From Escherichia coli (GTDB taxonomy: Bacteria; Pseudomonadota; Gammaproteobacteria; Enterobacterales; Enterobacteriaceae), in NCBI RefSeq assembly GCF_003334305.1, contig NZ_QOWS01000018.1: a stretch of DNA of 64,000 bases. The stretch is one strand, 5' to 3'. Numbering within the stretch: position 1 is the stretch's first letter; each line of letters opens with the position of its first letter. The position numbers were made by a program, and so were the translations under genes. This document shows positions 40,159 through 45,779 of the stretch, in pieces. Below the pieces are notes generated by a model. That model saw only the letters and a program-made list of their open reading frames with translations. It was not told the origin of the DNA and did not search any database.

Positions 40159-40280
40159 AAAACCTCGCTTTACTGTGGTTTTCAGTAATGGGCGGCAATT
40201 GTAACGTTTTTTTGGGCTGGAGCACGTTTTCTCTGACGGTTACACTGATAAGAAATAATTTCGTGTGGATCTACAGAGTC

Positions 40281-42335
40281 ATGGAACTGAAAGCGACAAC
40301 GCTTGGAAAACGTCTGGCACAGCACCCTTACGATCGGGCGGTGATCCTCAATGCCGGGATTAAAGTCTCCGGCGATCGCCACGAATACCTTATTCCTTTC
40401 AATCAATTACTGGCGATTCACTGTAAGCGCGGTCTGGTATGGGGCGAGCTGGAATTTGTACTGCCGGACGAAAAAGTGGTGCGTCTGCACGGCACCGAAT
40501 GGGGCGAGACGCAGCGTTTTTACCATCATCTTGATGCTCACTGGCGGCGGTGGAGTGGCGAGATGAGCGAAATTGCGTCTGGTGTTTTACGCCAGCAACT
40601 GGATTTGATTGCCACGCGCACTGGAGAAAATAAATGGCTGACGCGTGAGCAAACCTCTGGCGTGCAGCAACAAATCCGCCAGGCTTTGTCGGCGTTGCCG
40701 TTGCCGGTTAACCGACTGGAAGAATTCGATAACTGCCGTGAGGCGTGGCGTAAATGTCAGGCCTGGTTGAAAGATATTGAAAGCGCTCGGTTGCAGCATA
40801 ACCAGGCGTATACCGAAGCCATGCTTACCGAGTATGCGGATTTTTTCCGCCAGGTCGAGTCTTCACCGCTGAATCCGGCGCAGGCCCGGGCAGTCGTTAA
40901 TGGCGAGCATTCTCTGTTAGTGCTGGCAGGTGCAGGAAGCGGAAAAACGTCGGTGCTGGTGGCCCGTGCAGGCTGGTTGCTGGCGCGTGGTGAAGCGTCC
41001 CCTGAGCAAATTTTATTGCTGGCGTTTGGTCGCAAAGCCGCTGAAGAGATGGACGAGCGGATTCGCGAACGGCTACATACCGAAGACATTACCGCACGCA
41101 CGTTTCATGCGCTGGCGCTGCATATTATTCAGCAGGGCAGCAAAAAAGTTCCGATAGTCAGCAAACTGGAAAATGATACCGCTGCCCGTCATGAACTCTT
41201 TATTGCTGAGTGGCGCAAGCAATGCAGCGAAAAGAAAGCGCAGGCGAAGGGCTGGCGGCAATGGCTGACGGAAGAAATGCAGTGGTCAGTGCCAGAAGGT
41301 AACTTCTGGGATGATGAAAAATTACAGCGTCGCCTTGCCTCTCGCCTCGATCGCTGGGTAAGTCTGATGCGGATGCACGGTGGTGCACAGGCAGAAATGA
41401 TTGCCAGTGCACCCGAAGAGATTCGCGATCTGTTCAGTAAACGTATCAAGTTGATGGCCCCGTTATTAAAAGCCTGGAAAGGTGCGCTGAAGGCAGAAAA
41501 CGCTGTCGATTTTTCGGGCCTTATTCATCAGGCGATTGTGATTCTGGAGAAAGGTCGCTTTATCAGCCCGTGGAAGCATATTCTGGTTGATGAATTTCAG
41601 GATATCTCGCCGCAGCGCGCAGCGTTGTTAGCGGCATTACGCAAGCAAAACAGTCAGACGACGTTGTTCGCCGTTGGTGATGACTGGCAGGCGATTTACC
41701 GATTCAGCGGTGCGCAAATGTCGCTCACCACCGCTTTCCATGAAAACTTTGGTGAAGGCGATCGCTGTGATTTAGACACGACTTACCGTTTTAACAGTCG
41801 TATCGGTGAGGTGGCAAACCGGTTTATTCAGCAGAACCCAGGCCAGCTGAAAAAGCCGCTAAACAGCTTAACCAATGGAGACAAAAAAGCCGTCACGTTA
41901 TTGGATGAGAGTCAACTTGACGCTTTGCTGGATAAGCTCTCTGGTTATGCCAAACCGGAAGAGCGCATTCTGATCCTGGCGCGTTACCATCACATGAGGC
42001 CTGCCAGCCTGGAAAAAGCGGCAACACGCTGGCCGAAGTTGCAAATCGACTTTATGACCATTCATGCCAGCAAAGGGCAACAGGCGGATTACGTCATCAT
42101 CGTTGGCTTGCAGGAGGGAAGTGATGGTTTTCCGGCTGCGGCGCGGGAGTCGATTATGGAAGAGGCGCTACTGCCACCGGTTGAGGATTTCCCGGACGCT
42201 GAAGAACGGCGGTTAATGTACGTGGCGCTGACCCGGGCACGCCATCGGGTATGGGCACTGTTTAACAAAGAGAATCCCTCTCCCTTTGTGGAAATACTGA
42301 AAAATCTGGATGTGCCGGTGGCGAGAAAACCGTAA
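40281..42335 (+). CDS. helD: DNA helicase IV (UvrD-like superfamily 1)
   Basis: Track ORF trimmed to MELKATTLGKRLAQHPYDRAV (684 aa); Walker A AGAGSGKTS. Confidence 0.94.
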   Translation: MELKATTLGKRLAQHPYDRAVILNAGIKVSGDRHEYLIPFNQLLAIHCKRGLVWGELEFVLPDEKVVRLHGTEWGETQRFYHHLDAHWRRWSGEMSEIASGVLRQQLDLIATRTGENKWLTREQTSGVQQQIRQALSALPLPVNRLEEFDNCREAWRKCQAWLKDIESARLQHNQAYTEAMLTEYADFFRQVESSPLNPAQARAVVNGEHSLLVLAGAGSGKTSVLVARAGWLLARGEASPEQILLLAFGRKAAEEMDERIRERLHTEDITARTFHALALHIIQQGSKKVPIVSKLENDTAARHELFIAEWRKQCSEKKAQAKGWRQWLTEEMQWSVPEGNFWDDEKLQRRLASRLDRWVSLMRMHGGAQAEMIASAPEEIRDLFSKRIKLMAPLLKAWKGALKAENAVDFSGLIHQAIVILEKGRFISPWKHILVDEFQDISPQRAALLAALRKQNSQTTLFAVGDDWQAIYRFSGAQMSLTTAFHENFGEGDRCDLDTTYRFNSRIGEVANRFIQQNPGQLKKPLNSLTNGDKKAVTLLDESQLDALLDKLSGYAKPEERILILARYHHMRPASLEKAATRWPKLQIDFMTIHASKGQQADYVIIVGLQEGSDGFPAAARESIMEEALLPPVEDFPDAEERRLMYVALTRARHRVWALFNKENPSPFVEILKNLDVPVARKP

Positions 42336-42337
42336 GA

Positions 42338-42362
42338 AACAGGTGGCGTTTGCCACCTGTGC
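42338..42362 (-). terminator. Hairpin between convergent helD and mgsA
   Basis: Stem acaggtggc/gccacctgt with loop gttt; T-rich tract follows on the minus strand. Confidence 0.5.
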
Positions 42363-42366
42363 AATA

Positions 42367-42825
42367 TTACTTCAGACGGTCCGCGAGATAACGCTGATAA
42401 TCGGGGATCAGAATATCGACCGCGTCGTTGAAATGCGGCGACTGGATTATGAAGTCTGCCGTTGCCACGTTGGTGGCGACCGGAATGTTCCATACCGTCG
42501 CCAGACGCAGCAAGGCTTTCACGTCAGGATCGTGCGGCACGGCATTTAGTGGATCCCAGAAGAAAATCAATACATCAATTTTCCCTTCTGAGATCAATGC
42601 GCCAACCTGCTGGTCACCCCCCATTGGGCCACTCAACATCGCGTTGACGTTCATGCCGGTCGCGCGGGAAATTAAGTTACCGGTAGTGCCTGTTGCATAC
42701 AGTACGTGTTGTTCCAGTAACGGTTGATGCCGTTCCACCCAGCTCATCAGCATTTGTTTGCAGTGATCGTGTGCCACCAGCGCAATATGTTTCCGCGCAG
42801 GTAAAGTGCGAGTCGTCAGTTCCAT
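42367..42825 (-). CDS. mgsA: Methylglyoxal synthase
   Basis: Track ORF trimmed to [24 protein letters not shown] (152 aa). Confidence 0.94.
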
Positions 42826-42920
42826 AATGTACATCCGTAGTTAACTTTCCTACAGATTACTGTAAGCACTTATCGCTGCAAGATAAAGACCGAAAAAGCC
42901 TGCGCACAGGCACAAAAATC

Positions 42921-43583
42921 TCAGGAAGATGGTTGTTTTTCCGCCCACTGCAGGAAAGTATTTCGCGTTTGTGGGTCAGCCAGTTTAAACCAATACTTCA
43001 GCCGTTGTTCTGTGAGCACCTGAGACTGCGGTGGAATAGCATCCAGCTCGGAAACACCCGAAAGCAGCGTACTGTCATCTGCCATCATCGTGGCAAATTG
43101 CGGTAGTGAAGCGCGTTTCGCGGATTTGTTATAGCGTTCAACCTCGACCTCATAATCAATCGTTTTTGCCGTTGAGGTAATGGCGAGAATATCCAGCTTT
43201 ACCGGAATCGGCGTCGCATCGCCATCCAACAATTCAAGGCGCGGCGCGGCATCAAAATGGTTAGCTTCCCGCTCATTCTCCAGGCGAGGCAGGCGAAAAT
43301 TGACCTGGTTGATGAGCTGGGTATTAAAACTGACCACCAGCGGTGGGGAGATATACAGCCGTTCTTCACTATTGGAAAGATGAATCGTCTTCTCAACGCG
43401 AAACACTAACTGATGCGGTCCATTATCCAGTTCAATGCTGTCCGCACCGCGCAGCAGAGAGCTGGAAACCTTCTTGCCGTCGAGTACCAGAAGATCGACA
43501 TCGGTTGAAAGCCGCAGCGTGGTGGCAAAAACGGATACCGGCAAACATAATGCAATCAAGGTGGTCACGATGCCGGTTTTCAT
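42921..43583 (-). CDS. yccT: Uncharacterised periplasmic protein
   Basis: 220 aa; N-terminal signal peptide [20 protein letters not shown]. Confidence 0.88.
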
Positions 43584-43755
43584 AGGTAGCTCCTGTCAAA
43601 AGACCGCCCGAATAATAATGTGTCAAAATTTTTCTTTAATCATACTTACTAACATATAGACATATTTCCCGCTTTTGCTCTCATTCATTCGTATTAGCTG
43701 CATGGTTGGCATGTCGGCTTTGTCGTACACTTTGTTAAACAGTCTGGAGGAAATA

Positions 43756-44169
43756 ATGAAAGAAACCGATATTGCAGGCATTTTAACGTCCACTCACACC
43801 ATTGCGCTGGTGGGGGCAAGCGACAAACCCGATCGTCCCAGCTATCGCGTGATGAAATATCTACTCGACCAGGGGTATCACGTCATTCCGGTTTCGCCAA
43901 AAGTTGCCGGCAAAACGCTGCTGGGCCAGCAGGGGTATGGCACGCTGGCAGACGTTCCGGAAAAGGTCGATATGGTCGATGTTTTCCGTAATTCAGAAGC
44001 GGCGTGGGGCGTGGCACAGGAAGCTATTGCCATTGGCGCGAAAACCCTCTGGATGCAACTGGGGGTGATTAATGAGCAAGCGGCAGTACTGGCACGGGAT
44101 GCCGGGTTAAATGTGGTGATGGATCGCTGCCCGGCTATTGAGATCCCTCGCCTGGGCCTGGCCAAATAA
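43756..44169 (+). CDS. yccU: Small CoA-binding domain protein
   Basis: Track ORF trimmed to [30 protein letters not shown] (137 aa); GGAGG RBS 6 nt upstream. Confidence 0.88.
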
Positions 44170-44208
44170 AAAATCCCCGGAAGGCAAAAACCTTCCGGGG
44201 ATTCGTTC
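44168..44208. terminator. Bidirectional terminator between yccU and hspQ
   Basis: atccccggaagg-caaaaa-ccttccggggat perfect 12-bp stem with an A-run on the plus strand (U-run for the minus strand). Confidence 0.75.
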
Positions 44209-44213
44209 AGGGA

Positions 44214-44588
<375 letters not shown>

Positions 44589-45779
44589 TTACATGACGCG
44601 ACAGGCAAACCCTTTCAGATATAGCCCTTCCGGGTAGGTAGCGATCACCGGATGATCGGCTGCCTGACGGAACTGCTCTATAAATTGTACATCACGGCCG
44701 GCATCAATTGCGGCATCCGCGATGATTTTCTGAAATAAATCGCTGGTCATCAGACCGGAACAGGAGAAAGTCAGGAGAATACCGCCTTCATTCAGCAACT
44801 GAATCGCCAGCATGTTGATATCTTTATAGCCACGACACGCGCCCATCAACTGGCTTTTATTCTCAACAAACTTCGGCGGGTCCATCACGATAACGTCAAA
44901 TTTTTCACCGCGATCGCGATAAGTACGCAGCAATTTAAAGACATCATCACGGACAAACTCAGCCTTGCTCAGATCCAGTTTGTTCAGCTCAACGTTCTGC
45001 CGTGCAATATCCAGCGCTTCCTGGGAGGTATCAACGCTGACAACCTGGCTGCAACCGCCCATCAGTGCCGATACGGCGAAACCACCGGTATAGGAGAAAC
45101 AGTTCAGCACACGTTTATTTTCAACGTAGCGGCGGGTAGCCAGGCGGCTATCACGCTGGTCCAGGTAGTAGCCCGTTTTGTGTCCGTGCTGAATATCCAC
45201 CAGCAGTTTCATGCCGTGTTCTTCAATCGGCAGCAGGGCAGGTGGCAACTCGCCGGTGACGAGGCCCTGGGTCAGCTCCATCCCTTCTTTTTTACGTACC
45301 GCAACATCGCTGCGATCGTAAATCGCACATTCCGGGTACAGCGTTTGCAGGGCACTAATTAATGCCGCGCGCTGATATTCTGCGCCAGCACTCAGCAGTT
45401 GCAGCACCAGAAAATTACCGAAACGATCGATAGTAATACCCGGCAGGCCATCAGATTCTCCGGCGATTAAACGATAGCTGTCGAGGCCATCTTTTTGCGC
45501 CAGCCAGTCACGCCATTTTTGTGCTTGTTGCAAACGGCGGGAAAAAAAAGCAATGTCGATAGACTCAGACGGGTCAAACGTCCAGACGCGCGCCCGGATT
45601 TGCGAAGCTGGTGAATAAGCGCCGCGTGCTAACCATTTTCCCTGATGATCAACAATATCGATGGTTTCACCGAGGCTGGCTTTACCTTCCATGCGGGCAA
45701 CGGCCCCGGAAAAGACCCACGGATGGCGACGAAGTAATGATTTTTCGCGCCCTTTGGCTAACACTAAACGTACACTCAT
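44589..45779 (-). CDS. rlmI: 23S rRNA m5C1962 methyltransferase
   Basis: 396 aa; SAM-dependent methyltransferase fold with the DPPKF motif. Confidence 0.92.

Follow-up and report, generated by a model that had tools for sequence, protein, structure and literature searches.

The divergent genes csgI (formerly yccT) and yccU, located in a stretch of 64,000 nucleotides of the Escherichia coli contig NZ_QOWS01000018.1 (assembly GCF_003334305.1; this whole stretch is called the window below), are in our judgment, with a probability of about 80%, two unrelated and characterized core genes that have a promoter spacer in common, csgI encoding an inhibitor of curli synthesis and yccU a Qad-type acetyl donor for the protein HspQ. 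The pair is ordinary core content of the E. coli genome, both functions have already been published, and nothing new is found in it; the practical gain is a correction, as the old y-names mask that one gene encodes an inhibitor of curli amyloid and the other a regulator of proteolysis by Lon/ClpS. A preliminary description of the window had presented both products as uncharacterized proteins with poorly defined functions, a statement that can no longer be upheld since homology search gives a clear annotation for each of them (csgI through the family model NF047712, yccU as "putative HspQ acetyl donor"). Its emphasis on the yccT-yccU pair also overlooks that yccU and hspQ are the functionally meaningful and documented pair.

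From the list of open reading frames (ORFs) and the raw sequence, it is evident that an ORF of 220 codons (positions 42921-43583, minus strand; csgI/yccT) and one of 137 codons (43756-44169, plus strand; yccU) diverge from a spacer of 172 bp (43584-43755). When the segment 42800-44300 was compared by megablast with complete E. coli genomes, matches were obtained in all of them (5426/5426), many at 100% identity; the stretch is E. coli chromosome. The gene boundaries in the RefSeq record of a 100%-identical E. coli agree for mgsA, csgI, yccU, hspQ, and rlmI, and the ORF coordinates, sizes, divergent layout, and spacer length of the preliminary description coincide exactly with the ORF list, the sequence, and these boundaries.

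CsgI is the periplasmic curli synthesis inhibitor known from K-12

The 220-aa product of csgI, a name that is also the one used by RefSeq, scored 384.1 bits against the NCBIfam equivalog model NF047712 "curli synthesis inhibitor" (cutoff 300), residues 4-220 aligning with positions 2-218 of the 218 positions of the profile, and it also passed NF002967 (404.8 bits against a cutoff of 189). The Pfam family DUF2057 (PF09829, UPF0319) was matched by residues 22-213 over the full model (1-192; E 1.7e-48), which spans the mature chain. A Sec signal peptide occupies codons 1-20 (43524-43583, minus strand), as indicated by the sequence and by the report on the identical K-12 protein; its n-region with K2, hydrophobic core, and VFA cleavage motif were read from the sequence without a dedicated predictor. 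The CsgI proteins of the window and of strain MG1655 are 100% identical. As the spacer is identical as well, the experiments performed with K-12 are directly applicable to the csgI gene of the window. When compared with K-12 CsgI (PMC10002515; NF047712; DUF2057/UPF0319), the gene is the same in protein, spacer, signal peptide, and neighborhood, and no difference was detectable.

According to Sano et al. (2023; PMC10002515), K-12 CsgI carries a signal peptide of 20 aa and fractionates with the periplasm, which together with the signal in the sequence bears out the earlier view of a secreted 220-aa protein. In the same study, csgI mRNA was induced by CsgD, deletion of csgI lifted the block of curli formation due to CsgD overproduction, and purified CsgI caused, in a dose-dependent way, a longer lag and a lower yield of CsgA polymerization in vitro. 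Overproduction of CsgI reduced transcription of csgD and csgBA in an EnvZ-dependent way, via EnvZ/OmpR (PMC10002515). The effect of CsgI was lost without the signal peptide and was independent of the envelope-stress systems Cpx and Rcs (PMC10002515). Periplasmic location, induction by CsgD, inhibition of CsgA polymerization in vitro, and the presence of OmpR at the promoter have been demonstrated for the identical K-12 protein. In the mechanism that we propose, CsgD would turn on csgI along with the curli genes, CsgI would prevent polymerization of CsgA in the periplasm by binding or restraining its subunits, and abundant CsgI would lower csgD transcription through EnvZ/OmpR. Binding of OmpR to the csgI promoter, with repression, would then close a feedback loop. 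The classical inhibitor of CsgA amyloid formation, CsgC, resembles CsgI in being periplasmic, induced with the curli genes, and inhibitory to CsgA polymerization in vitro, and the two are reported to act independently (PMC10002515).

An AlphaFold2 model of CsgI, obtained with an alignment of 61 sequences, was confident (mean pLDDT 88) and predicts a beta-sandwich with two helices at about residues 21-155, a disordered linker at about 165-185, and a C-terminal helical hairpin at 186-215, which bears the most conserved residues of the family (L195, W198, and F210). The helix of the signal peptide was modeled with low-to-moderate confidence and lies outside the beta-sandwich. A sequence search of the PDB with CsgI returned no match at E values up to 1. 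Between the csgI stop and mgsA, a consensus scan found a small putative terminator-like hairpin followed by a T-run (42898-42916, minus strand; GCCTGTGCGCAGGC and then TTTTTCGG), which agrees with the handling of yccT as a transcription unit of its own (PMC5438342).

YccU is orthologous to Qad of Salmonella

The 137-aa YccU is a single-domain CoA-binding protein, as the preliminary description had already recognized: Pfam CoA_binding_2 (PF13380) was matched by residues 14-130 (E 3.6e-41). Over the full length, YccU matched CoA-binding proteins of solved structure, namely the Klebsiella ortholog 2DUW (E 3e-83), Pyrococcus PH1109 (2D59/2D5A; 8e-27), and Thermus TT1466 (1IUK; 5e-25), with which it shares the conserved stretches ALVGAS-KP-R, at the N-terminus, PV-PK, and VD-F. 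These are structural-genomics proteins without an assigned physiological partner, and the archaeal and Thermus members may not be assumed to serve HspQ. YccU also aligned with the N-terminal CoA-binding part of the protein acetyltransferase Pat itself (9it0, E 8e-5) and with that of acyl-CoA synthetases of the NDP-forming type (4xyl). In NCBIfam there was no YccU-specific model, and only weak matches to the CoA-binding domain of acyl-CoA synthetases were obtained.

The protein encoded at the equivalent site in Salmonella enterica, likewise convergent to hspQ, is 93% identical to YccU, the compared sequence being from subsp. diarizonae and not from strain 14028s employed in PMC6719616. The RefSeq record of MG1655 (NC_000913.3) names the yccU product "putative HspQ acetyl donor", a name that traces to Yeom and Groisman (2019; PMC6719616). 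These authors described that the gene beside hspQ in Salmonella (STM14_1223, now qad) has a product predicted to bind CoA, that Qad together with Pat and acetyl-CoA acetylates HspQ at Lys96, and that acetylated HspQ accumulates and inhibits ClpS-dependent proteolysis by ClpAP. Glucose, through acetyl-CoA, drives the acetylation of HspQ in a qad-dependent manner in Salmonella (PMC6719616). In the window, hspQ (44214-44531, minus strand) encodes the 105-aa activator and substrate of Lon that is the documented target of Qad, and its residue 96 is a lysine. Window YccU and Salmonella Qad thus share a single CoA_binding_2 domain, the convergent position with hspQ, Lys96 in the neighboring HspQ, and 93% identity. 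E. coli K-12 encodes Pat (YfiQ/PatZ), the pat gene being located outside the 64-kb window.

The functional data belong to the Salmonella protein and would extend to E. coli YccU by orthology, hence the "putative" in the RefSeq name. By this analogy YccU, a Rossmann-type CoA-binding protein, would bind acetyl-CoA and aid Pat in acetylating Lys96 of HspQ. Acetylated HspQ would neither be degraded by Lon nor stimulate it, and would accumulate and inhibit ClpS, the adaptor of ClpAP. The carbon status of the cell, expressed as the level of acetyl-CoA, might thereby retune which proteins are degraded.

A longer form of YccU with 164 residues, starting at a TTG at position 43675, was considered and dropped. 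The RefSeq start is the ATG at 43756, and the region upstream of it contains single-base indels between species and is therefore regarded as non-coding. The mechanical ORF list nevertheless extends yccU to the TTG at 43675, which reproduces the old 164-aa YccU.

The spacer between csgI and yccU, a probable regulatory region

The divergent spacer (43584-43755) is identical to that of MG1655 at 172/172 bases. Genomic SELEX places it among the targets of CsgD, with csgI and yccU both assigned to it (PMC10002515). By ChIP-exo, Seo et al. (2017; PMC5438342) detected a peak of OmpR at the promoter of yccT, with mode "Rep" and its center at -5 from the transcription start site used there, and they also observed an increase of yccT mRNA of about 2.9-fold in an ompR mutant. 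In a transposon screen of a uropathogenic strain, two insertion sites of curli-negative colonies were located in the yccT-yccU spacer and were not followed up (PMC6106082). As CsgI is an inhibitor and the colonies were curli-negative, these insertions may have raised the expression of csgI.

The OmpR peak assigned to yccT (repression) corresponds to positions 43624-43676 of the window, mapped from 1027037-1027089 of NC_000913.2. The mapping was made through the coordinates of csgI in NC_000913.3 and the offset between the two versions, which we take to be 777 bp, in agreement with the ompF row of the supplement to PMC5438342.

An alignment was made of 69 distinct Enterobacteriaceae spacers, from 68 other species and the window. 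An 18-bp block, TTACTAACATATAGACAT (43646-43663), was near-invariant among them and is located at the center of the OmpR peak. Read on the csgI strand (GTCTATATGTTAGTAA), the block suggests a candidate -10 element of csgI (TATATG preceded by C, minus strand) overlapped by ACAT repeats that resemble OmpR half-sites. A TATATG preceded by C would set the start of csgI transcription near 43645, which agrees with the "-5" of PMC5438342. Other conserved elements of the spacer were the ribosome-binding site of csgI, the motif TTGCnCTCAT, and TTTGnCGTACACTT just upstream of the ribosome-binding site of yccU. Within this last element a conserved hexamer, TACACT (43726-43731, plus strand), is a candidate -10 of yccU that was not called by the promoter scan, and the Shine-Dalgarno sequence GGAGG of yccU is found at 43746-43750 (plus strand). 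The scan for sigma-70 consensus promoters called none inside the 172-bp spacer; it gave two hits, both within csgI and at chance level (2 found, 2.0 expected). An Rfam search of 42300-44700 found no RNA family in the spacer.

One further motif of the spacer, AAAAGCGGGAAATA (43663-43676, minus strand), resembles a CsgD box. It is the sole match in the 64 kb to a presumed CsgD-box consensus (AAAAGNGNNAAAWW, attributed to Ogasawara et al. 2011), with 0.25 matches expected per whole window. In the alignment of 69 spacers the motif was conserved within Escherichia only, and its distance from the putative csgI start does not clearly fit the published "35-58 bp upstream" (PMC10002515); we treat it as a lead.

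Gene order and evolutionary rates

The gene context was scanned in one genome per species, which yielded 80 loci (L003-L082), all from Enterobacteriaceae, and more distant contexts were covered by four single look-ups. Order and orientation of rlmI-hspQ-yccU-csgI-mgsA-helD, with yccU on the opposite strand, were kept in 80/80 species loci. Outside Escherichia, identity to the respective window protein amounted to 60-87% for CsgI, 87-98% for YccU, 79-96% for RlmI, 83-96% for MgsA, and 74-91% for HelD, the last range overlapping that of CsgI. CsgI is the fastest-evolving of CsgI, YccU, RlmI, and MgsA, which is typical of an exported protein. In two relatives with 36-42% identity in CsgI, a gene for a CoA-binding protein is located head-to-head with the DUF2057 gene and mgsA is located downstream; hspQ is found in its usual position in at least one of the two, and the other has an unidentified gene there. 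Relatives with 29-31% identity in CsgI are encoded near rlmI or near an acylphosphatase gene, without yccU or hspQ. The divergent pairing of csgI and yccU is therefore a matter of synteny at the level of Enterobacterales and does not reflect a universal coupling.

Two records from these comparisons look mislabeled or contaminated. A contig labeled Chryseobacterium sp. 18061 (CACSKA010000002.1; L069) holds the whole enterobacterial block rlmI-hspQ-yccU-csgI-mgsA-helD at 62-93% identity, and a csgI homolog (P0105) is labeled as a plasmid protein of Pseudomonas marginalis.

Alternative explanations for the roles of CsgI and YccU

Several observations weigh against the assignment of csgI to curli control and of yccU to the acetylation of HspQ. 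The phenotypes of CsgI come mostly from overexpression of CsgD or of CsgI itself, and deletion of yccT mattered only when CsgD was overproduced (PMC10002515). The yccT ortholog of Salmonella has instead been tied to peroxide stress and polar localization (PMC6955953), and the DUF2057 relatives with 29-31% identity lie in other gene neighborhoods. For YccU, no experiment with the E. coli protein was found in the literature, where its other mentions concern only a cross-link between its cysteine and thioredoxin 1 in living E. coli cells (PMC5740110) and a co-evolution screen that predicts SdaB as its partner (PMC10933411). In vitro, Pat is essential for the acetylation of HspQ and Qad merely enhances it (PMC6719616). 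Furthermore, among 76 Enterobacteriaceae species residue 96 of HspQ is Lys in 47, as in the window; 20 species have Gln and 9 have Arg instead, together about 38%, while YccU remains 87-98% identical, and the YccU family also occurs in Thermus and Pyrococcus.

It might be argued that the native role of CsgI is not curli control, that CsgI instead has a more general function, common to DUF2057 proteins, in the periplasm or in envelope stress, and that its effects on curli partly reflect overproduction of a secreted protein. The requirement for overexpressed CsgD or CsgI (PMC10002515) would fit this idea, as would the slower growth in osmotic stress upon overexpression (PMC5438342), the peroxide sensitivity of the Salmonella yccT mutant (PMC6955953), and DUF2057 relatives with 25-31% identity in contexts without yccU and hspQ; nor does the CsgI model have a solved structural relative pointing to a chaperone fold. 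We nevertheless consider this explanation unlikely, as purified CsgI delays and reduces CsgA polymerization in a dose-dependent way, removal of the signal peptide abolishes the effect, and no route through Cpx or Rcs is involved (PMC10002515). Moreover, csgI is a direct target of CsgD and carries OmpR, the activator of csgD, on its promoter (PMC10002515, PMC5438342), and independent transposon hits in the promoter region abolished Congo-red binding in the uropathogenic strain (PMC6106082). An even less probable proposal is that the divergent layout itself is functional and that the spacer, under the control of CsgD and OmpR, co-regulates csgI and yccU and so joins the biofilm matrix to HspQ-dependent proteolysis. 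Both genes are on the list of CsgD targets from genomic SELEX (PMC10002515), conserved blocks are present on either half of the spacer, and the genes are head-to-head, some 150-190 bp apart, in 80/80 Enterobacteriaceae loci and in the two relatives with 36-42% identity in CsgI. However, SELEX by default credits one site to both flanking genes, deletion of yccU was without effect in the curli assay with overexpressed CsgD (PMC10002515), and yccU has 0 occurrences in the supplementary tables of the OmpR regulon (PMC5438342). As the whole neighborhood from rlmI to helD is equally conserved, adjacency alone is uninformative, and yccU is not located beside the more distant DUF2057 genes.

In the case of YccU, a broader role is a possibility that we regard as somewhat doubtful: its main conserved job might be that of a general sensor or carrier of CoA or acyl-CoA tuning the action of Pat toward several substrates, or that of a redox-linked protein binding the CoA thiol, the acetylation of HspQ being a lineage-specific output. 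Identity of 87-98% in 80 Enterobacteriaceae species against Lys in 47/76 HspQ proteins speaks for such a role, as do the solved homologs in Thermus and Pyrococcus, the alignment with the CoA-binding part of the acetyltransferase itself and of acyl-CoA synthetases (9it0, 4xyl), the cross-link to thioredoxin 1 (PMC5740110) of a single cysteine (DRCPAIE motif) that is invariant in all species examined, and the predicted partner SdaB (PMC10933411). Against it, the qad phenotypes of Salmonella depended fully on hspQ, lon, or clpS, and acetylation of PhoP by Pat was unaffected by Qad (PMC6719616). In addition, the convergent arrangement of yccU and hspQ is found in each of the 79 Enterobacteriaceae loci that reach hspQ, one or both of the relatives with 36-42% identity in CsgI have it too, and the links to thioredoxin and SdaB are single high-throughput observations. 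Given Lys96 in 47/76 species, the high identity of YccU, and the occurrence of the family in Thermus and Pyrococcus, the conservation of YccU is not fully explained by the acetylation of Lys96, and the room left for a wider role is a modest lead and not a finding. The further step, in which YccU is a general and possibly redox-gated, acetyl-CoA-sensing cofactor of Pat whose transcription from the spacer bound by CsgD and OmpR couples the biofilm state to protease specificity, seems improbable to us.

The hairpin between yccU and hspQ

The convergent genes yccU (stop at 44169) and hspQ (stop at 44214) are separated by a gap of 44 bp that contains a shared GC-rich hairpin (44171-44204) with a stem of 13-15 bp. 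Its folding energy was -25.6 kcal/mol on the plus strand (z -5.1) and -28.6 kcal/mol on the minus strand (z -5.8), and none of 200 shuffled sequences was as stable. The tail following the hairpin reads UUUUUUAUUU on the hspQ (minus) strand and UUCGUUCAGG on the yccU (plus) strand, and a scan with the terminator consensus scored the hairpin on the minus strand only. The preliminary description had postulated a strong bidirectional terminator shared with hspQ. The strong, stable GC-rich hairpin is indeed shared, but a good U-tract is present on the hspQ side only and not on both strands, so that the "strong bidirectional" terminator is borne out by half only in the window. Judging from these features, the hairpin would act as a canonical intrinsic terminator for hspQ, with a weak U-tract for yccU. 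In other genera a single hairpin is present at the same place, and among other cases those of Enterobacter, Lelliottia, and Buttiauxella are flanked by A- and T-runs on both sides. The Rfam search of 42300-44700, run in E-value mode, gave matches exclusively on this hairpin; they were below threshold (NsiR1, 31.6 bits against a gathering cutoff of 39; His_leader; anti-hemB) and were rejected as terminator look-alikes.

At the far side of csgI and mgsA, the mechanical ORF list overextends helD, which it starts at an ATG at 40188 instead of the annotated 40281 (ORF 40188-42335). In a number of Citrobacter genomes and in some others (L009, L010, L012, L018, L021, L063, L071), the gap between yccU and hspQ is enlarged from 25-45 bp to 100-175 bp. 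These enlarged gaps are highly structured (-43 to -77 kcal/mol) and repeat-like, contain GCCGGATAAG, and presumably arose by insertion of REP-type elements at the terminator between the two convergent genes.

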